Shown here: one piece after another, positions 10,690 to 58,460 of the stretch | Layout of the letters: every line of letters starts with the position of its first letter | Numbering within the stretch: the stretch's first letter is position 1 | IMG/VR virus record: IMGVR_UViG_3300007770_000001 | Strand: one strand, 5' to 3' | DNA length: 64,000 nucleotides | From: a virus | Taxonomy: Duplodnaviria > Caudoviricetes | Program-made: the position numbers and the translations under genes | Notes under the pieces: model-generated | Told to the model about the DNA's origin: nothing | What the model saw: the letters and a program-made list of their open reading frames with translations, nothing else | Database searches by the model: none

Positions 10690-11733
10690 GTGAGTGAATA
10701 CATTGTGAACACCAAGATCCGCGTCGGCGGTCAGGACCCTCTCGTAGAGCTCTACAAGGGGGAAGTCGTCCGGTTCCAAGGGAGCATGATCACCCGGGAG
10801 AACGGCGACGAGATCCGGCTCACCAACCCAGGGAGTATCCGACAGGCCATCAAGCTGGGGTGGATGGGTCTCGCCAGCCAAGGCCAGGGTGAGTACCGTT
10901 CCCGTCCCGCCCCCATCCAGGTCCACTCCCCCGAGTCGAGGGGGCGGGACCGGACCTCGATCAAGATGAACACCGCCCACGAGGAAGAGACGGAGGTCGG
11001 AACCGTAGAGAGCGTCCGCCCCGACAACGCCCCCCGGACTCACCAGGCCAAGAACGCGGGCCAGTACACTGTTGTCGAGGAGCAGGAAGGCCAGGTGGTC
11101 GGCCGGTTCAAGTCCTCGGCCAAGGCCGGTACTGTCGAGGTGGGCAAGAACGATCAGCAGATCAAGCGTCAGCTGGACAACAACCCCCGACGGGGTGTGG
11201 AGCGCGTCGCCCCTCGGATCTCTCAGCCGGACAATCCCCGAGAGGGCGTCACAGTCACTGGAGGAAGCTCCATTGGAGGAGAGGAGACCGGACGTGTGGT
11301 CGGCCGTGTTTCCCGCGAGGAGCGGACTCCCGCCCCCCAGGTAGGCCCTGCCCCTACCCCCCGCCCTGCAGCTTCTCGGAAGGGACGTCGCAGTCTCCCG
11401 AAGGACGCCACTGCGGCTCTCCGTGAGTGGGTGTTCGAAGGGGAGACCTGGGATGGTCAGCCGATGGACATGAAGTCGGTTCGCACTCTCCTGGGCAAGC
11501 ACTTCCGCACCCTGGACACCAACACGATGGTGTCTCGTGCAGAGGCGGCAGCCTCCGAGCCTGCAGCCCCCCAGGACGAGCCTGTCTGGAACCTCTCCCT
11601 CCACTGGAAGACGCGTGAGTCCCGGGTACGCCACCACGCGGAGAACGAAGAGGTCCTCCAGTGGATCCTGGACAACGACTCGAGCAACGCCGTCAAGAAG
11701 AAGGCGCGTCGGTTCCTTGAGGATCTCCTGTAG
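10690..11733 (+). CDS. Hypothetical protein (347 aa, low-complexity centre)
   Basis: AGGAG RBS, typical phage codon usage, operon position. Confidence 0.7.
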   Translation: MSEYIVNTKIRVGGQDPLVELYKGEVVRFQGSMITRENGDEIRLTNPGSIRQAIKLGWMGLASQGQGEYRSRPAPIQVHSPESRGRDRTSIKMNTAHEEETEVGTVESVRPDNAPRTHQAKNAGQYTVVEEQEGQVVGRFKSSAKAGTVEVGKNDQQIKRQLDNNPRRGVERVAPRISQPDNPREGVTVTGGSSIGGEETGRVVGRVSREERTPAPQVGPAPTPRPAASRKGRRSLPKDATAALREWVFEGETWDGQPMDMKSVRTLLGKHFRTLDTNTMVSRAEAAASEPAAPQDEPVWNLSLHWKTRESRVRHHAENEEVLQWILDNDSSNAVKKKARRFLEDLL

Positions 11734-11778
11734 GTCCGGTATCTTCGCTATTCACAGCGAACCCTGCTGGAGCTCTAC

Positions 11779-12414
11779 ATGAAAATCCTCAAGGAAAGGT
11801 TCCGGAGCTTCTCCGACCAGGTTCGGATGCTCCTGGGTCTGGTCTACGAAGATAGCTTCCCCACGCCCAAGAAGGGGGAGGTCTTCATCCGGGTCGAGGA
11901 CGCCGACACCGGCGAGCTCATCGAAGAGCGTCACATCAAGAATGTGATCACCCTCGATGCAGGCCTCTTGGCCTCTACGTTGATGCTTGCGCCGACCTCT
12001 CGGAACGGCATCAACATGTTGGCCGTAGGGACCGGCGCCACTGGAGCCGTCCTGTCTCCGGACGCTCCGGACCCCAAGCAGAGGAAGCTCAACGCGGAGA
12101 TCGCTCGGAAGACGTTTTCCTCGACTACCTATCGTGACGCCAGCGGGAACGCGGTTTCGATCCGGACCGACATCCTCGACATGACCACGACCTTCGAAGC
12201 GGGAGAGGCGGTTGGTCCGCTCAACGAGATGGGTCTCATGTCCACCATCTCGGACAACACGGGTGTCCAGAACCTGAATCCCGACACGTACCCGACTCGG
12301 GACGTCACGGTGGATGTGGATGACTACGACATCCTCGTGAACTATCTGACGTTTGGCGTGATTTCTATCCCGGCGACCGCCAGATGGAGCCTTACCTGGA
12401 GAATAACCTTCTGA
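11779..12414 (+). CDS. Baseplate / tail-fibre-attachment-type structural protein (211 aa)
   Basis: GEVFI...ELIEERHIKNVIT...LAVGTG...L..EI.RK...TTTFEAGEAVGPLNEMGL...W.LTW.ITF pattern, typical of phage tail/baseplate proteins. Confidence 0.65.
   Translation: MKILKERFRSFSDQVRMLLGLVYEDSFPTPKKGEVFIRVEDADTGELIEERHIKNVITLDAGLLASTLMLAPTSRNGINMLAVGTGATGAVLSPDAPDPKQRKLNAEIARKTFSSTTYRDASGNAVSIRTDILDMTTTFEAGEAVGPLNEMGLMSTISDNTGVQNLNPDTYPTRDVTVDVDDYDILVNYLTFGVISIPATARWSLTWRITF
12385..12414 (+). repeat. Copy 1 of recoded duplicate 3' end (WSLTWRITF*) of the 11779 gene
   Basis: TGG AGC CTT ACC TGG AGA ATA ACC TTC TGA. Confidence 0.9.
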
Positions 12415-12494
12415 TTTCAGTGGGTTACAGGCCAAGGTAGTTTACCGGGATATCATAGATAGCGGCCTACACCGACTCAGGGTATCCTGGTTGT

Positions 12495-13640
12495 ATGCCT
12501 CTTCAGTGTCCTGTGTGCTCTCGGAACGGGTTCAAACGACTCACGCGCCACTTGAAACAGGCCCATTCTCTTTCGAAGCCTGAGGCCCTTGCGCGCTATC
12601 CGGGGCTGGTCTTCGAGGAACCCCTTCCTTCTCGGGAGATTCCCTGCTCAAGCTGCGGGGAGATCGTTCCTGGGGTTTCCCCGCGTGCGACCTACGTCAA
12701 GTGCGAGAAGTGTCGAGTCCCCCCATACACAGGACCCCAGGTATCCTGCGCACTATGTGGAATCTCCCGAAGGAGTCTTCGGAACCACCTCAGGGCGTCT
12801 CATGAGTTGACACCGGACCAGTATCGTGCCAAGTATCCAGGAGAACCCGTAGAGGTTCCTGGGATCCGAAAGAAGTCTCCAGAGACCCGCACCAAGATGT
12901 CTGCCGGAGCTACTCGTCGGTGGTCCGACCCTGAGAAGAGAGCAGAGCAATCCGCTAAGCTGAAGCAGGTAGCTCCCTGGAAGGGGAAGAAGCTATCTCC
13001 AGAGCATAGGGAAGCCATATCCAAGGCTGTCACAGGGTGCGACTACAACCTATCGGAAGAGGGGCGTAGGATCCGAGCAGAGTGTGGTCGGCGTGCTCTT
13101 GAGAAGATTCGCCAGAGACCTGGATATTGGGAGCGCGTTCGGAAAGGCCAGAAGGAGTCTCGTGCAAGAAGAGCTCGGGAGGGAACTCTCTATTTCCCAA
13201 ACGGAAGAGGGATATCCGGGATCCGGAAGGATGTTGGACACTTCACCAGGTCTACGTTGGAGGCCAACTTTTCCCGGGTTCTCCTCCTCAACAAGATCCC
13301 CTACCAATATGAGCCGAAGTGCTTTAATCTGCAGATAGGGGGGAACACGGTCCTCTATCTCCCAGACTTCTACCTTGAGGAACCTTTGTCCCACGACGGG
13401 CGAGTTCTTGTCCCTGCAGGTTGGGTTGAACTGAAAGGTTGGAGACCTAAACCGAGCGATATCCCTTGGATTGCTCAGGAGAAGATAGACGCCCTGTCCC
13501 TTCTGGTAGGGTCTTCAGTAGCCCTGGTGGTCCAATCCGAGCCCTCCTGGACAGATATCCGAGACATTTGGAGACCGCAGATACCCTTGTGGGAGACGGG
13601 ACGTAGGAATCTGCGGACGAACCCTCAGATGTTTCGTTGA
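12495..13640 (+). mobile_element. Free-standing homing endonuclease gene: Zn-finger repeats + NUMOD3-like segment + PD-(D/E)XK nuclease
   Basis: CxxC..H.x4.H fingers; KGKKLSPEHREAISK (NUMOD3-like); RSTLEANF..YQYEP..YLPDF..VELKGW nuclease core. Lower GC than neighbours. Confidence 0.8.
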
Positions 13641-13646
13641 TCTTGA

Positions 13647-13676
13647 TGGAGTCTGACTTGGCGGATCACCTTCTAA
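13647..13676 (+). repeat. Copy 2 (orphan remnant) of the 3' end WSLTWRITF*
   Basis: TGG AGT CTG ACT TGG CGG ATC ACC TTC TAA, 6 nt after the endonuclease stop. Confidence 0.9.
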
Positions 13677-13720
13677 CAGGCGTGTCCCGCCGGTAAAGTC
13701 TCCCGTTGGCGGGAGACCCT

Positions 13721-14782
13721 ATGAGAACGCTCACGATACGAGCGCCGGACGACATGCATCTCCACCTACGGCAAGGGGAGATGCTTCCCGATCTGGTGTC
13801 CTATTCGGCGATGCACTGGTCTCGCGGCATCGTGATGCCCAACACCAAGCCCCCAGTGCTAACGCACTGGGATGCCGCCGGCTATTGTGCGAAAATCATG
13901 GAGGCCGGCACGGGCTTCCAGCCCCTCATGACCCTCTACATGACGGATGGGACCACTCCTCAGATCATCGAGGACGCGGCGGAGTCTGGATTCATCTACG
14001 GGGTCAAGCTCTATCCCCACGGAGCCACAACCAACTCCGATGAGGGCGTCACCGAGATCGAGAACATCTATCCGGCCCTGGCGGTGATGGAGGAGCACGG
14101 GCTCCCTCTCCTGGTGCACGGGGAACTCACCCACGACTACATGGGTGAGGTGGACTTCTTCGACCGCGAGGAGAGATTCCTCCATGCGGTCATGCGTCCC
14201 ATCCTGGACCGCTACCCCGACCTTCGGGTGGTCCTCGAACACATCACGACCCGAGCAGCCACCTCTTGGATTCGGATGGTGCAACCCGAACTCCCGGAAG
14301 ATGTCAAACCCGGAGTACCTCAGATCGCTGCAACGATCACGGCCCATCATCTCCTGGAGAACCGGAACGCTCTCTTTCGGGAGGGGGCCAACACCCACAA
14401 CTTCTGCCTTCCCGTCCTGAAGCGCGAAGTCGATCGACAGGCCCTGGTGTCGGCGGCAACCTCCCGGGAGCCCTGGTTTTTCGCGGGGACTGACTCTGCC
14501 CCCCACACTGTCTACGCCAAGCACAACCACGGTTGTGCCGGGTGCTACACAGCCCCCCATGCGCTCCAGCTCTATGCTGAGGTCTTTGATCAGGTGGGTC
14601 TCCTCGAGAGACTGGAGGACTTCACCTCTCGATTCGGGGCGGAGTACTATGGACTCCCTCTCAACCCCCACAGCATCACCCTCAAGGAGGAACCCTATGT
14701 GGTCCCCCTACACCACATGATCGGGAACAAGCCTGTGGTGCCCTTCTGGGCGGGTCGGAGGTTGGCGTGGTCCGTAGCCTGA
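13721..14782 (+). CDS. pyrC: Dihydroorotase (homodimeric, E. coli type)
   Basis: DDMHLHLR, IVMPN, PLMTLY, GVKLYPHGATTNS, LLVHGE, VLEHITT, FCLPVLKR, FAGTDSAPH motifs. ATG at 13721 chosen over TTG at 13706. Confidence 0.95.
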   Translation: MRTLTIRAPDDMHLHLRQGEMLPDLVSYSAMHWSRGIVMPNTKPPVLTHWDAAGYCAKIMEAGTGFQPLMTLYMTDGTTPQIIEDAAESGFIYGVKLYPHGATTNSDEGVTEIENIYPALAVMEEHGLPLLVHGELTHDYMGEVDFFDREERFLHAVMRPILDRYPDLRVVLEHITTRAATSWIRMVQPELPEDVKPGVPQIAATITAHHLLENRNALFREGANTHNFCLPVLKREVDRQALVSAATSREPWFFAGTDSAPHTVYAKHNHGCAGCYTAPHALQLYAEVFDQVGLLERLEDFTSRFGAEYYGLPLNPHSITLKEEPYVVPLHHMIGNKPVVPFWAGRRLAWSVA

Positions 14783-15792
14783 GCTTCCTCGACTTCATCT
14801 ATCGCTACGGGCTCAAACAAGTCCTGTTCCCTCTGGATGCTGAGAGATGTCACGAGGCCATGCTCTGGTCCGCTCGACACTTCTCCCGGTTCCTCCCGAT
14901 GACTCCTTTCCCCAAGGGCATAGAATCCAAGATCGGGGACATCGAGATTCCGGGTCCTGTGGGTCTGGCCGCAGGGATGGACAAGAACGGGGACGCCCTC
15001 CCTCTATGGGAGCGCCTTGGGTTCGGATTCATCGAGATAGGCTCAGTCCTCCTCCACCCCCAGGAAGGGAATCCGCGCCCGCGTATCAAGAGGCTCCCTG
15101 AGGAGATGCTCTGGAACTGGATGGGATTCCCCAGCGCTGGCATGGTACGGGTGAAGAGGAACTTCCGCCACTGGCAGGACTGCGGTCTCTGGCCTTCGGT
15201 TCCTGTTGGGATCAACATCGGTCTGAACAAGGAGGTCGAGGCCAAGGACGCCCCTCTCCACTATGCATCAGTGGCCAACTTCCTGTCTCAGTTCGCCGAC
15301 TACTTCGTGGTGAACCTGTCCTCCCCGAATACTCCCGGACTGCGGAGCCTCCAGCACCGGGAGAACTTCAAGAGGATCGTCGGGGCTGTCCTAAAGGCAG
15401 TTCCCCACGTCCGAGTCTTCGTGAAGCTCAGTCCTGACCTCCCTCCCCTCCCCTACATGGAAGTTCTGGAAGCCGCTGAGAGAGTCGGAGTTCACGGGAT
15501 CATCGCGACGAATACCTCGGGACACTCAGGCCTCAACCCTCGAGGGCACGGAGGGGTCTCAGGATCCTACCTGTACCACAACTCCCAGGAGAAGGTCCAG
15601 GCTGCTCTCCAGGGAACTCGACTTCCTGTGATTGCCTGTGGAGGGATCAACTCCACCTATCGAACCCAGAAGGCTCTCCTGGATGGTTGTGCTGCTGTAC
15701 AGCTTCTCACGGCCCTTGTCTTCAAAGGCCCGGCCTTCCCCCACCGGATCAACCAGGGGCTCTACAAGCTCCTACAGGACGCTCCAGAATAG
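14767..15792 (+). CDS. pyrD: Dihydroorotate dehydrogenase (quinone, class 2)
   Basis: PVGLAAGMDKNG, GFGFIEIGS, GNPRPRI.RL, NLSSPNTPGLRSLQ, FVKLSPDL, GIIATNT, GGVSG, GGI, VQLLTAL..GP motifs. Confidence 0.93.
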   Translation: MVRSLSFLDFIYRYGLKQVLFPLDAERCHEAMLWSARHFSRFLPMTPFPKGIESKIGDIEIPGPVGLAAGMDKNGDALPLWERLGFGFIEIGSVLLHPQEGNPRPRIKRLPEEMLWNWMGFPSAGMVRVKRNFRHWQDCGLWPSVPVGINIGLNKEVEAKDAPLHYASVANFLSQFADYFVVNLSSPNTPGLRSLQHRENFKRIVGAVLKAVPHVRVFVKLSPDLPPLPYMEVLEAAERVGVHGIIATNTSGHSGLNPRGHGGVSGSYLYHNSQEKVQAALQGTRLPVIACGGINSTYRTQKALLDGCAAVQLLTALVFKGPAFPHRINQGLYKLLQDAPE

Positions 15793-55187: not shown

Positions 55188-58100
55188 ATGGCGACCCAAG
55201 ACAAGTTCTTCCCCGGAAGCAGCGTCTCCCGCTACCTCATCCCGGGCGAGAGAAGCTGGGGAGAAGCTGTGTACCAGAGCGGGAAGCCCGTTCTGGATGC
55301 CGAGCTCATCCTCTCCCAGGAAATCGTCCGCGAGATGCAGGGCCTCCTGTGGGACCGAGAGACTCCCTCTGGTTGGCTCCGAGGACCTGTTCCCCTCGAT
55401 GGGAATGACTTCGCGGGGTCTCCCACGGCGAACTCCCTCCGCATGGTCAAGCGTACAGCTTTGGTGGCGGGCCTTCCGGTGGTCGTCGAATACACAGGAA
55501 CGACCACTCCTTCCCTGAACGAGATCGTCCTCGATGCCGCGCCGATTTTCGGGGGAGCTCCGCCGGATGTCAAGAGAACGGACTTCATCTTCCTCGAGGT
55601 GTTCCGGGCCCTCGTGTCTCACAGCCCTCGGGCTTCTGCGACCACGGAGGTCATCACCAACGCTGACGTGACGGCAGGAGATACGATCACCATCAACGGG
55701 ACTCCTCTCACTGCTGTGGCGGGTGCTCCCGCCGCCGACGAGTTCCAGATTGGTCTGAACGAGAACGCTACCGCTTCGAACATCGCAGCAGCCATCAATC
55801 TCCCAGGCAACAGCTTCACCAGCATCTGCACCGCAACGACGGATGTCGCGAACCCTGCTCTGGTCAATCTCCGTGCTGCGGATGCTTTGGCTGGCGCCGC
55901 CGGGAACGCTATCACCCTGACTCTCTCCCTGACGACAGGCGGCGCCATCCAAGTCAATGGTGGTGCAGGGCCCACCACGTTCTCTGGGGGTTCGGATACC
56001 TCGAACAAACCGACCCAGGCGACCCTGTATCGCCACGGGAACGTAGACGTTCCTTCGGGAGTGAACTTCCCTGATGATATCGCGGACCCCACCATTGGAA
56101 CCGAGTCCACCAAGCGGGTTCAGATCCAGTACCGCATTCGCACCACAGGGCAGTCCGAAGCCGTCAACTTCAAGACAGGGAACGGCTTCGAATCCTCCGT
56201 TCTGGCTCAGGGAACCCAGTCCGCCCCCGTCGCAGGCTATCCCTTTGTCCCCGCAGATGGGACGTCCTCCAGCGGCTCTTCAGACGCTTCTGCCTACCAA
56301 CGGGTAGACGCGGGCCTTTGGGTTGCTGGGGACGGCTCAGAGGCCGCTGCCACCGCCCTGGGGACAATCGATGGCTATGTCTACGCGGTTCCGATGGCAA
56401 TGGTCTTCCGGCGGAACGATGCATACAACGGAGGGGCCGGCGGGGGCTGGAATCCTCTGACGAATACCAATGGTGCACTCCCCCGTGTCCATGGAGGCTT
56501 TGCCAACCCTGTCGTCGGCGTTATCCCTGCGAACTCTTCAGACCGCCCAGATGGCCGGTTCCATGACGAGATTCTTCCCGCCGATGTGATGGATCTCCGG
56601 AAGCAGGTCTCCCCTGGAGGAATCGATCTGAAAGCGGAGCTCGAGCGGCAGATGACGTCCCTGATGGACGGGAACTTCGGAACCTGGGCCATCGATGCGG
56701 CGGACAAGAACACTCTGGGTGCAGGTTCCGGAGATGTAGGAACTCAGTTCCTGGTCTGCAATGAGGTGGGTCGCTCCGCAGCGAAGGGCGGAGTGGCTCC
56801 GGACAGCGGAAGCACCACTCGGGGCAACGGTATCGGGGACTTCGACCACATCCGCCGTCGGTTCGCTGACTGGCCTGTTGTGGAGCGTCGGGTTCTCCCA
56901 ATCCTCCCCACCGATCTGGTGGGCGCGCAGCCTGGCAAGTACGTCGCCAAGGTCACCGGGGGATACACGACGTGGGAAGCAGGGGATGTGCTTCACATCG
57001 ACCTGGACACCCTGGACGCCACCGGCCTTGGTGGCTGGGCCCACGCTCCCTCTGGAGTTCCCACAGGAGGAGGTGCTGTCACCAACCTGTGGCCTCTTGG
57101 GACCAAGGTGACCAACGTCCTCCGAGTCTTGCATGACGACGGCAACTACAACGCAGCCATCGACAAGAACGTAGCTCTGGACCAGGTCGTTGGTGTGGGG
57201 ACACCCCATATCGAGCTCACACTCGGACGGAACACCCTTCAGGCTACCGGGGGGATCAACGTCGCAGGATACGACCTGGTAGGTGCCGGAGGCGGAGGAG
57301 ACAACAACTCACCACGGCGCATCTGGGTCGAGCTCGAGATCACGTATCCAACGGCAAACGGGACAACCGACACCCCTGTAGAGATCACTCCCGACGCTAC
57401 TGTGTATCCCTCAGGACCGGTTTTCGAGAACCAGACCTCCCAGCGGCCTGATGACTGGGAAGGGGTCATCCAGCCCAAGTACAGGGATGGGGCTCGTGAG
57501 GTAGGTCTGGAGTACATCACCAACGACGGCTCTGGCGCCGGCTCGGGAACTCCGATCACGGACCTGGTCGTCAGCGACTCTACGACTACAGTGACGATGC
57601 CGCGCCGTGTCTATGGTTCGGGGGTCACGACGACCACCGTGACTGACCAGGTGTCCACTCTGCCTCGGGCGGTGGACACCGCGACCACCCCTTATGGGTC
57701 CAGCGCCCGTCGCATCGATCTTCAGGACCCTCTCTCAGGAGCGGGTCAGACCCTGGTCTCGGTGGAGTACTTCGCCCAGGACCCTCTTCCGAACTGGGGG
57801 GCCGTAGGCTACCAGCTGTCCTGCTACTTCAGGTCCGATGCTCCTCAGACTCTGGGCGTTCAGGCGGGAGCTCCCGGAACGGTGCAGATGCCGACGACGC
57901 TCCTTCTGCGTCCCCTGGTTATGTCCCGAACGCTCTGGACAGGCACAGCGGGAGCGGGTAGTGCTGATCTCCCGTATCCCTATGCCAAGCCTCTCGACCA
58001 GATCGCGGTCAACGGGGACCAGAGCCCGTCTCCCTTCCCTGGGGAATGGATCCTCTCGGCGAACGCCTCCATCTCGATTGCTGACTTCAGTGCAGAGACG

Positions 58101-58460
58101 GGCCTGCTGAATCTCCAGCAGCTGGTTCCTGTGGATGGGAACCAGGATTTCCAGTTCAGTTCCCTGGATGTAGACTCGGAGTTCCGAGTCGCATACAAGG
58201 TCTCGGACACGAGTGCCTACCGCCCGGTAGCCATGGCCCAGCCCCTCTCCGGAATCGCAACCCACAAGGTCTGGTTCCCCTTCTTGGCTCGTGCCTCTGC
58301 TGACGGCACCTTCTTCCGGAAGGATGAGGTTCTCCTGGTTGTGGTGAGCCGCTTGGCTATCCTGGACAACACCAACGTGGTGCGGTTCGTGGACTCCAAC
58401 AACGATACATGTGCCGCCGTCTATCGGACGAGGGGCATCTTCCTCTTGGCGTCGGAGTGA
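55188..58460 (+). CDS. Virion structural protein (tail/baseplate-associated, 1090 aa)
   Basis: N-terminal VSR.L......V.Q.GKP.LD.EL motif, shared with the gene starting at 63909; Gly/Thr-rich beta content. Confidence 0.7.
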   Translation: MATQDKFFPGSSVSRYLIPGERSWGEAVYQSGKPVLDAELILSQEIVREMQGLLWDRETPSGWLRGPVPLDGNDFAGSPTANSLRMVKRTALVAGLPVVVEYTGTTTPSLNEIVLDAAPIFGGAPPDVKRTDFIFLEVFRALVSHSPRASATTEVITNADVTAGDTITINGTPLTAVAGAPAADEFQIGLNENATASNIAAAINLPGNSFTSICTATTDVANPALVNLRAADALAGAAGNAITLTLSLTTGGAIQVNGGAGPTTFSGGSDTSNKPTQATLYRHGNVDVPSGVNFPDDIADPTIGTESTKRVQIQYRIRTTGQSEAVNFKTGNGFESSVLAQGTQSAPVAGYPFVPADGTSSSGSSDASAYQRVDAGLWVAGDGSEAAATALGTIDGYVYAVPMAMVFRRNDAYNGGAGGGWNPLTNTNGALPRVHGGFANPVVGVIPANSSDRPDGRFHDEILPADVMDLRKQVSPGGIDLKAELERQMTSLMDGNFGTWAIDAADKNTLGAGSGDVGTQFLVCNEVGRSAAKGGVAPDSGSTTRGNGIGDFDHIRRRFADWPVVERRVLPILPTDLVGAQPGKYVAKVTGGYTTWEAGDVLHIDLDTLDATGLGGWAHAPSGVPTGGGAVTNLWPLGTKVTNVLRVLHDDGNYNAAIDKNVALDQVVGVGTPHIELTLGRNTLQATGGINVAGYDLVGAGGGGDNNSPRRIWVELEITYPTANGTTDTPVEITPDATVYPSGPVFENQTSQRPDDWEGVIQPKYRDGAREVGLEYITNDGSGAGSGTPITDLVVSDSTTTVTMPRRVYGSGVTTTTVTDQVSTLPRAVDTATTPYGSSARRIDLQDPLSGAGQTLVSVEYFAQDPLPNWGAVGYQLSCYFRSDAPQTLGVQAGAPGTVQMPTTLLLRPLVMSRTLWTGTAGAGSADLPYPYAKPLDQIAVNGDQSPSPFPGEWILSANASISIADFSAETGLLNLQQLVPVDGNQDFQFSSLDVDSEFRVAYKVSDTSAYRPVAMAQPLSGIATHKVWFPFLARASADGTFFRKDEVLLVVVSRLAILDNTNVVRFVDSNNDTCAAVYRTRGIFLLASE

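Follow-up and report, generated by a model that had tools for sequence, protein, structure and literature searches.

Organization of the locus

The locus lies within a 64,000-nucleotide stretch of viral DNA (IMG/VR record IMGVR_UViG_3300007770_000001; hereafter the window), and consists of a conserved phage gene whose last codons occur twice, once at its own end and once again beyond a putative endonuclease gene. The features are as follows:

11779..12414, plus strand: target ('host') gene, 211 amino acids, phrog_5417 family (PHROG match E 1.3e-16, reaching the last profile position)
12385..12414, plus strand: working copy of the last nine codons and stop, linked to the cassette; AGA/ATA/CTT spelling and endonuclease-like codon usage
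12415..12494, plus strand: cassette leader, with the motif AAGGTAGTT at 12434-12442, followed by TATCATAG
12495..13640, plus strand: free-standing endonuclease gene, 381 amino acids, assigned from Pfam, PHROG, PDB-profile and structure matches
13641..13646, plus strand: six-base spacer TCTTGA, from the endonuclease stop to the orphan
13647..13676, plus strand: orphan, read as the displaced resident last nine codons and stop of the target gene; genome-typical codon usage
13678..13720, plus strand: stem-loop directly after the orphan stop and before pyrC (ATG at 13721); RNA fold -22 kcal/mol, z -2.85

The target protein is conserved in jumbo phages and is a homologue of Bacillus phage G gp190, with a T-W-R motif near the C-terminus that is invariant across 858 homologues. 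Its AF2 model was closest to the A511 gp105 and phi812 baseplate proteins, a weak match (Foldseek probability 1.0, E 2e-3), and on this model the protein is probably a baseplate component whose last 10 residues form the terminal beta-strand.

The open reading frame of the target gene ends in TGG AGC CTT ACC TGG AGA ATA ACC TTC TGA, the working copy, and the orphan reads TGG AGT CTG ACT TGG CGG ATC ACC TTC TAA. An earlier note, made from the sequence of the window, had reported that the terminal peptide WSLTWRITF and its stop recur downstream, six nucleotides 3' of the endonuclease stop, and that all seven differences between the copies are silent; each of these observations proved exact. A six-frame scan of the window found the peptide with its stop exactly twice, and the chance that seven random substitutions in 30 bases would preserve both is approximately 5e-6. 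A GA precedes the first TGG in both copies, and no similarity beyond this GA and the 30 bases was found on either flank. The W-S within the terminal peptide is lineage-specific, being present in both window copies and absent from other homologues. The orphan is in frame with the endonuclease open reading frame, though behind two stops, and is untranslated.

The end of the spacer and the bases that follow read GATGG, the same as 12383-12387, and microhomology may have been used at the right-hand join. The match is no more than a hint, since two additional identical bases would occur by chance once in 16. The stem-loop beyond the orphan probably belongs to the 3' flank that the target gene originally had in this genome, and the lack of a following T-run sets it apart from a canonical terminator.

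An identical structure was present in contigs from six runs of two studies, hence the arrangement is not an assembly artefact. The Logan contigs, from four runs of two studies, each spanned the stretch uninterrupted, the only variation being one SNP (12294 G>A, synonymous); contigs from ENA and JGI were likewise near-identical. No empty joint across the insert was present in the Logan contigs of the four runs, these being contigs rather than reads, from which rare variants would escape.

Codon usage of the two copies

The earlier note had further described the upstream copy as using codons atypical of this genome, and this held for three of them: AGA, ATA and CTT account for 8.2%, 2.8% and 9.3% of their synonymous families in the long genes of the window, as against 33%, 82% and 34% for the CGG, ATC and CTG of the orphan. 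It did not hold throughout, as the AGT (4.8%) and ACT (17.8%) of the orphan are rarer in the same genes than the AGC (16%) and ACC (46%) of the upstream copy. The orphan was nonetheless the better fit to genome usage, with a log-likelihood of -8.0 versus -11.9 for the working copy.

The endonuclease gene has a composition of its own, with ATA, AGA and CTT at 29%, 16% and 27% of their families and a GC3 of 0.60 versus 0.73 for the genes of the window. Scored for resemblance to this usage, the working copy gave a log-likelihood ratio of +1.85, within the top 2.3% of nine-codon segments in the window's genes, whilst the orphan, at -2.27, was unremarkable and genome-typical; the highest-scoring, endonuclease-like segments of the whole target gene were located at its 3' end. 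The spelling of the working copy resembles that of the endonuclease gene, and that of the orphan resembles the remainder of the genome. Within the window, the support for calling one end resident and the other foreign is this codon usage, an argument drawn from nine codons.

The endonuclease and its leader

The endonuclease has a modular layout, with Ros/MucR-like zinc fingers at residues 1-45 and 79-126, a CxxC zinc ribbon between them, a NUMOD3 module at residues 164-181 and a C-terminal PD-(D/E)xK nuclease domain at approximately residues 238-361. Pfam searches returned ROS_MUCR at 42.7 bits (cut-off 25.4) and NUMOD3 at 22.1 bits (cut-off 20.4), the PHROG matches were to homing endonuclease, resolvase and endonuclease families, and a PDB profile search matched Ros (E 3e-8). 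The AF2 model had a pLDDT of 82 and, at full length, gave no Foldseek match at E below 1e-3. For residues 238-361 taken separately, VIA-align returned TnsA (Z 6.9), I-Bth0305I (5.6, a fold-level likeness with no significant sequence match), Vsr (5.4) and Hjc (5.2), and 10 of the 12 top structural matches were to PD-(D/E)xK, Vsr or RAP folds, at moderate scores (Z 5.2-7.5), in line with a restriction-endonuclease-like alpha/beta core.

The family alignment displayed an E...PD...ExK signature within the conserved motifs STLEANF, LPDFY and WVELKGW. E256 and E312 were invariant, and D291 and K314 were kept in 12 of 15 aligned copies; the D and K were lost only in three shortened copies, which fits decay. 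The window protein is accordingly a predicted nuclease with intact catalytic residues (E256, D291, E312 and K314) and separate DNA-binding modules.

The leader motif (AAGGTAGTT/TATCATAG) is conserved 5' of related endonuclease genes in other phages and occurs once in the 64-kb window. Its TAGTT was invariant in 10 of 10 aligned cassettes, several of which also displayed a promoter-like spacing (TTGAC, 17 bases, TAnnnT). Scans near the cassette for sigma-70 and terminator consensus sequences yielded nothing above background.

Distribution of the endonuclease family

A single-sequence scan of IMG/VR retrieved no close relatives of the endonuclease. An alignment-based search of IMG/VR with the endonuclease family alone retrieved 17, all of them located directly 3' of a homologue of the target gene, and the matches located elsewhere were only distant nuclease-domain relatives. 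What the family members have in common is the 3' end of the target gene beside them, whilst the gene on the downstream side varies. The cassette was present in 16 of 114 homologue loci (~14%), a distribution requiring 14 changes on the tree, and the correlation between endonuclease similarity and target-gene similarity was weak (r 0.26).

Most relatives have a clean junction, with the cassette following the stop codon of the target gene, and no orphan. The start codon of the endonuclease overlaps the target gene stop in many family members, and the ATGGC start of the next gene lies 0-25 bases after the endonuclease stop in relatives. In the window, the usual downstream neighbour of the target gene is located 41.5 kb away, at 55188-58460. 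An unusual downstream neighbour is also present at five or six further endonuclease-bearing loci that harbour no orphan, so that a lack of homology on the right need not produce one. Local alignments and peptide scans of the endonuclease-bearing loci identified orphans in the window and in one further IMG/VR contig, L198, only; weak similarities following the endonuclease in two others, L075 and L146, were judged unconvincing.

Amongst the arginine codons beside the endonuclease, AGR was enriched and CGG/CGC depleted (Fisher p 9e-4 and 2e-4, on raw counts), although the association with endonuclease presence was not significant in phylogenetically independent pairs. An arginine codon acting as a resistance mark was consequently rejected; it is also contradicted by L198, which uses AGG in both of its copies.

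Two further cassettes with duplicated gene ends

The orphan in L198 is a second, independent instance with the same endonuclease family. Its working end and its 21-base orphan differ at five bases, all of them silent, and the TGA of the orphan overlaps the ATG of the next gene. The two nearest relatives of L198 (L269 and L270), recovered through protein homologues, have empty sites in which the gene stop overlaps the ATG of the next gene. This junction is the same as that between the orphan and the next gene in L198, and is therefore ancestral. The check proposed in the earlier note, that relatives lacking the insert should have the downstream-type codons directly at the end of the gene, was thus passed in this sister case. 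An exact junction search of IMG/VR for an empty allele of L198 returned the same contig only.

For the lineage of the window itself, no empty allele was found, every contig and run searched being occupied. The exact target protein was encoded only on contigs with the same neighbours, its nearest homologue was 65% identical, and a degenerate pattern of the C-terminal peptide had no match in IMG/VR or JGI metagenome contigs.

A GIY-YIG cassette located elsewhere in the same genome has the same layout. The insertion points differ among the cases, at 30, 21 or 0 bases before the stop, hence co-conversion with an irregular right-hand join is a better fit than a precise, intron-like insertion.

Probable origin of the duplicated end

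We consider it likely that the locus arose through a free-standing homing endonuclease, with a PD-(D/E)xK domain guided by the Ros/MucR fingers and the NUMOD3 module, whose cassette homes to the conserved 3' terminus of a baseplate-like jumbo-phage gene and replaces that end upon insertion. During a co-infection, the nuclease would have cut the 3' end of the gene in a cassette-less phage, and repair would have copied the gene end, stop, leader and endonuclease gene from a cassette-bearing phage. With the usual right-hand neighbour 41.5 kb away there would have been no adjacent homology on the right, and so that side would have closed irregularly, perhaps at the GATGG microhomology, leaving the last 30 bases of the resident gene stranded 1,262 bases downstream. 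The seven silent differences would then have accumulated between functional alleles of two separate phages. By analogy with the WHO elements of yeasts, these differences and the disruption of the site itself would probably protect the occupied genome from its own nuclease, whilst the orphan and its flank could provide homology on the right whenever the cassette homes into a close relative.

The central proposal of the earlier note is supported by this analysis. That the element brings its own version of the gene end and displaces the resident one, so that splicing is unnecessary, is supported by codon usage, by L198, by the strict 3'-end address of the family and by the organellar precedent described below.

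The alternative that survives best, although we regard it as unlikely, is that the arrangement is the passive scar of one irregular recombination, with the silent differences representing allelic divergence that has no role in immunity, and with the real target elsewhere, possibly at the stop codon or intergenic junction, or in the usual next gene. The clean, orphan-free position of the cassette in most relatives is in keeping with such a scar, as are the differing junctions of the two orphan cases (30 versus 21 bases before the stop) and the disappearance of the codon association under phylogenetic control. A target elsewhere is harder to reconcile with a family whose constant neighbour is the 3' end of this gene and whose downstream neighbour varies. 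Moreover, the layout has arisen at least twice with the PD-(D/E)xK family and once more, in this genome, with a GIY-YIG gene, and WHO elements do gain allele-specific resistance from the 3' end that they replace.

It is much less probable that the protein is a domesticated nuclease or regulator working with the baseplate module, kept adjacent for its function and often lost, as might be suggested by the strict synteny with one gene and by the Ros/MucR fingers, which are classic transcription-factor domains. The gene is found in only ~14% of homologue loci, scattered over the tree, shortened copies and copies that are catalytically dead by their residues exist, and its composition is foreign to the genome; the presence of NUMOD3 and the gene-end duplications, a hallmark of invasion, also argue against domestication.

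Duplication of the gene end in place, followed by drift of the two copies and with no foreign end involved, would explain the identical peptide in both, including the lineage-specific W-S, but is more improbable again: an untranslated copy should have gained replacement changes, whereas all seven are silent, the two copies are under different codon-usage regimes, and the empty relatives of L198 demonstrate that there the orphan is the original end. The least probable explanation, that the 1.26-kb insert is removed at the level of RNA or translation (as a group I intron or by ribosomal bypass), leaving the downstream copy as the true last exon, can appeal to the intact orphan and to introns being a frequent home of homing endonucleases, and is disfavoured because the gene is already complete with its own stop (12412-12414), no Rfam family matched within 11700-14000 even at E up to 1, bar an unrelated weak match, and the endonuclease stop lies six bases from the orphan, with no room for a 3' intron core. 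The endonuclease is a separate open reading frame between two stops, as expected of a gene outside introns and inteins, and a diverged intron is improbable.

Relationship to known systems

Free-standing homing endonucleases of the Seg and Mob types are known from T4-like phages, in which their spread is termed 'intronless homing'. In ICP1 phages, nuclease genes are found at exchange boundaries (Barth et al. 2023, PMC10448857). As in the window, the T4-like and ICP1 systems involve an intergenic modular nuclease, with DNA-binding modules including NUMOD3, beside a conserved gene and sporadic among relatives, and spread is thought to proceed by cleavage of the neighbour and co-conversion of the flanks. 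Their catalytic domains are GIY-YIG, HNH or T5orf172, whereas that of the window is PD-(D/E)xK, and no mention of duplicated recoded target-gene ends was found in the ICP1 paper (PMC10448857). I-Ssp6803I and I-Bth0305I, homing endonucleases whose fold is of the PD-(D/E)xK or Vsr-like type, reside in group I introns (PMC3239194). I-Bth0305I has an EDxHD motif, whilst the window endonuclease is free-standing, with the classical E...PD...ExK motif and Ros/MucR fingers.

The organellar precedent for end replacement invoked in the earlier note is real, and is found in the mORFs of fungal mitochondria (PMC3630166). These generate 'gene hybrids' in atp6 of Allomyces macrogynus and in atp6, atp9, cox2 and nad3 of Glomus sp. 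(Beaudet et al. 2013, PMC3630166, citing Paquin et al. 1994). In them the gene core is followed by an inserted foreign C-terminal piece, an endonuclease open reading frame and the displaced native piece, no splicing is involved, and the differences between the inserted and native ends are largely synonymous (PMC3630166). The window resembles them in its order of full target gene with a probable inserted end (12385-12414), endonuclease (12495-13640) and probable native end fragment (13647-13676), as well as in its silent differences and its complete, unspliced gene. The native end of mORF-bearing genes matches that of relatives (PMC3630166). The mORFs are organellar, encode LAGLIDADG or GIY-YIG enzymes fused in frame and have duplicated pieces of 50-280 bases, whereas the window, from a dsDNA jumbo phage, has a PD-(D/E)xK endonuclease in a separate open reading frame behind its own leader and a duplicated piece of 30 bases.

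The WHO elements of Torulaspora and Lachancea yeasts home into FBA1, replacing its 3' end (Coughlan et al. 2020, PMC7282813), and the replaced end makes the allele resistant (PMC7282813). The unit is the endonuclease gene with the upstream replaced 3' end of its target (PMC7282813), as is probable for the window. WHO proteins differ in being intein-derived LAGLIDADG proteins with zinc fingers; the elements reside in a eukaryotic nucleus, replace ~400 bases and form clusters by repeated homing, as opposed to the single cassette of the window. On this analogy the recoded end of the window may confer resistance to its own nuclease. We tentatively suggest, with rather less confidence than we have in end replacement itself, that the cassette is a phage counterpart of the WHO elements and mORFs, a mobile unit with a recoded, resistance-conferring gene end, in which the displaced native end would act as a downstream homology arm.

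In the open-access literature we found no paper on phages that describes recoded, duplicated ends of genes adjacent to an endonuclease gene. The layout is known in fungal mitochondria and yeast, and the present instance lies in a huge marine phage.

Implications

The locus illustrates that a homing endonuclease needs neither intron nor intein to settle within an essential coding sequence if it brings a spare gene end. The orphan keeps both parental alleles side by side, marking the recombination junction, and the two ends constitute a ready-made candidate pair of sensitive and resistant sites for an uncharacterised family of modular PD-(D/E)xK proteins with one strict address. The practical value is modest: the family would add new nucleases with long recognition sites, and the duplicated ends offer a natural marker for recombination between phages in the ocean. 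If common in phages, such cassettes would cause mosaic 3' and 5' ends of conserved genes, and would be a trap for annotation and phylogeny. If the interpretation is true, it would represent a general, so far undescribed route for selfish nucleases into coding sequence without introns, by which they would keep rewriting the termini of essential virion genes.

Duplicated end of the target gene

The features of the window on which the analysis rests are as follows.

Features around the endonuclease gene
12385-12414: target-gene end WSLTWRITF plus TGA (working copy), terminating the 211-aa ORF at 11779-12414
12434-12458: leader motif (A/T)(G)GTAGTT(G)AC
12495-13640: endonuclease ORF, 381 aa, downstream of the target gene
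13647-13676: second copy of WSLTWRITF plus TAA (orphan), starting six bases past the endonuclease stop
13721-14782: pyrC
14767-15792: pyrD

The duplicate of the gene end described in the earlier note was confirmed. Across the six frames of the window, WSLTWRITF followed by a stop is confined to these two sites, and the copies differ at 7 of 30 bases, none of which changes the peptide; the chance that seven random substitutions in the gene-end copy would all be silent is approximately 5 per million. Similarity ends at the block edges, except for two further bases (GA) on the left. An assembly artefact can be dismissed, since the duplicated structure is spanned in a single piece, with one synonymous SNP, by Logan contigs of four runs belonging to two marine studies, and ENA and JGI contigs are near-identical to the window across 14 kb. 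This SNP, the sole variant in 2.2 kb, is a G>A change at 12294 (CCG to CCA, target-gene codon 172) present in contigs of two of the four runs. A strong stem-loop (13678-13720; -22 kcal/mol, z -2.85), with no T-run behind it, separates the orphan stop from the pyrC start; the TTG start in the ORF list (13706) lies within its loop, and gene callers take the ATG at 13721.

Duplication in place followed by drift was excluded, as all seven differences are silent. The two copies must instead have diverged in two different phages, each of them serving there as a functional gene end.

Target gene and endonuclease

The target gene belongs to phrog_5417, with a match running to the very end of the profile, and all 43 aligned homologs keep T-W-R close to the C-terminus. 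Its homology to gp190 of Bacillus phage G and to hundreds of proteins on viral contigs of 100-600 kb shows the window to be jumbo-phage DNA. An AF2 model (pLDDT 71) places the last ten residues in a predicted terminal beta-strand, and its best structural matches, all weak, were the baseplate proteins gp105 of Listeria phage A511 and the phi812 counterparts, which makes the designation 'structural gene' plausible.

The endonuclease carries a Ros/MucR zinc finger and NUMOD3, each over the curated Pfam cut-off, and has PHROGs matches to homing endonuclease, resolvase and endonuclease families. An alignment of 15 members revealed an invariant E in STLEANF, together with the P-D of LPDFY and the E-x-K of WVELKGW; the catalytic D and K are missing from three shortened members. 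In the AF2 model (pLDDT 82), PD-(D/E)xK fold matches (TnsA, Vsr, Hjc, VRR-NUC and the I-Bth0305I catalytic domain; Z 5-7.5) are limited to residues 238-361, and residues 79-126 match Ros. This combined evidence makes the protein a modular member of the restriction-endonuclease-like nuclease superfamily whose catalytic residues are intact. The shortened members are probably decaying copies, which the homing cycle predicts.

Shortened family members, 252-277 aa (PDF changed to PSF/PAF; ELK to EVV/ETA)
L004:4735-5490
L010:4624-5388
L023:4712-5467

Which copy is resident

In the window's long genes ATA, AGA and CTT account for 2.8%, 8.2% and 9.3% of their synonymous families, compared with 29%, 16% and 27% in the endonuclease gene, so these codons of the upstream copy are indeed atypical for the genome. 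GC3 is 0.60 in the endonuclease gene, 0.73 in the genome and 0.80 in the target gene. When nine-codon windows were scored by the likelihood ratio of endonuclease to genome usage, the working copy reached +1.85 (top 2.3% of 10,538 windows), with the highest-scoring windows of the target gene at its extreme end, whilst the orphan scored an ordinary -2.27. Codon usage thus modestly suggests that the working copy came with the endonuclease and that the orphan is the resident end. No close empty allele (a target-gene locus without the endonuclease) of the window's phage occurs in the collections, where every contig and run is occupied; the nearest target-gene homolog is 65% identical.

Further cases of probable end replacement

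Two further loci carry a duplicated gene end.

Other probable end-replacement loci
L198:1472-2450 (IMGVR_UViG_3300014204_013734): second, independent orphan by the same endonuclease family
L273:4044-5353: unrelated GIY-YIG/NUMOD3 endonuclease cassette in the same genome, ~11 kb upstream of the window start

At L198 (IMG/VR contig 3300014204_013734), a 40%-identical endonuclease member lies behind a ~50%-identical target gene. The working end, ACT TGG AGG CTG ACT TTC TAG (TWRLTF), overlaps the GTG start of the endonuclease through its TAG, and the 21-base orphan, ACT TGG AGG TTA ACG TTC TGA (TWRLTF), overlaps the endonuclease 3' end, its TGA in turn overlapping the ATG of the following gene. 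All 5 differences in the 21 bases are silent (chance ~1.5e-4). The two nearest target-gene relatives, L269 and L270 (76% and 73% identical), have no endonuclease, and in both the target gene ends in a stop that shares bases with the ATG of the homologous downstream gene. Given this shared overlap, the orphan/next-gene junction of L198 is ancestral, and the working end with the endonuclease is the insert. The proposal that empty alleles would carry the downstream-type end therefore holds in this sister lineage; in the window's own lineage none was found.

At L273, a 159-aa gene ending KSSDIVNMGGGG-stop precedes the endonuclease gene, which ends KSSDIVNNPSCA-stop, such that the peptide KSSDIVN has two coding copies of 21 bases, which differ at 4 positions, all silent. 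The endonuclease ATG overlaps the upstream TGA, and the displaced tail is fused in frame to the endonuclease C-terminus; this is the end-replacement signature again, in a version that keeps the old tail as in-frame coding sequence.

Possible resistance to the nuclease

The recoded end may, as proposed, shield the occupied allele from its own nuclease. Family-wide, an excess of AGR Arg codons (Fisher p 9e-4) and a deficit of CGG/CGC ones (p 2e-4) are seen beside the endonuclease; the trend was not significant in seven well-supported independent pairs, and L198 has AGG in both copies. Because the window genome tolerates the orphan, recognition must span the left edge of the block, broken by the insertion, if the nuclease target lies in the duplicated region.

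Mobility of the cassette

Among 114 distinct loci retrieved via the target gene and having enough flank, 16 have a nuclease homolog directly downstream, with 14 changes in nuclease presence on the target-gene tree. To remove the ascertainment bias of this retrieval, the nuclease family was used by itself as the query against IMG/VR. Each of its 17 close relatives (E at most 7e-23) lay directly behind a target-gene homolog, and more distant nuclease-domain relatives occupied unrelated contexts. The gene on the downstream side differs between loci, target-gene and nuclease similarity are weakly correlated (r 0.26), and many members have an ATG or GTG overlapping the target-gene stop. The leader motif, with its invariant TAGTT, is common to the cassettes, lying 5' of every endonuclease ORF of the family (L005, L075, L078, L083, L089, L008, L013, L189 and L195, besides the window, where it occurs once). 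No intron family was detected at the window's cassette. Together, these properties characterise a free-standing homing endonuclease bound to a single gene at its 3' end. In several cassettes a promoter-like TAnnnT hexamer stands ~17 bases past the motif, and in short-form cassettes the motif falls inside an open frame beginning at the target-gene stop.

Proposed mechanism of insertion

The best account is repair of an endonuclease-induced break in which the donor's gene end was co-converted. The usual place of the cassette in relatives is between the target gene and a ~1,100-aa gene, and in many relatives the latter directly adjoins the baseplate-like target gene. The window's homolog (~1,090 aa; 55188-58460) is 41.5 kb off, beyond pyrC, pyrD and others; the intervening ~41.5 kb (13677-55187) holds mostly non-structural genes. 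Lacking adjacent right-hand homology, repair would have closed irregularly. The spacer and orphan start, TCTTGATGG, resemble the relatives' endonuclease stop followed by the ATGGC start of the next gene, and have GATGG in common with 12383-12387, a hint that the right-hand join may have used this microhomology. Junctions lie 30 (window), 21 (L198) or 0 bases (most relatives) before the target-gene stop, which argues for variable co-conversion and joining events rather than one fixed, intron-like insertion point. Leaving aside the possible resistance, the end-replacement model of the earlier note is supported by codon usage and by L198 with its empty relatives, whilst the precise insertion that it implies is not. 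An orphan is absent from several further loci where the cassette has unusual neighbours, so orphans either form only sometimes or vanish soon.

Relation to known systems

The organellar precedent invoked for end replacement is borne out by mobile endonuclease ORFs of fungal mitochondria, which generate 'gene hybrids' in Allomyces atp6 and Glomus atp6, atp9, cox2 and nad3; a foreign C-terminal piece is inserted 5' of the endonuclease, and the native piece, protein-identical to relatives, remains downstream (PMC3630166). Likewise, the yeast WHO unit comprises an endonuclease gene and a replaced, resistance-conferring FBA1 3' end, its insertion moving the old 3' end downstream as a homology fragment (PMC7282813). 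The window has the layout of both: working end, endonuclease gene, orphan end. No description of such end replacement in phages was found in the open-access literature. Three things set the window apart from both systems: the host is a dsDNA jumbo phage, the enzyme belongs to the PD-(D/E)xK family and bears Ros/MucR fingers, and the replaced piece is tiny.
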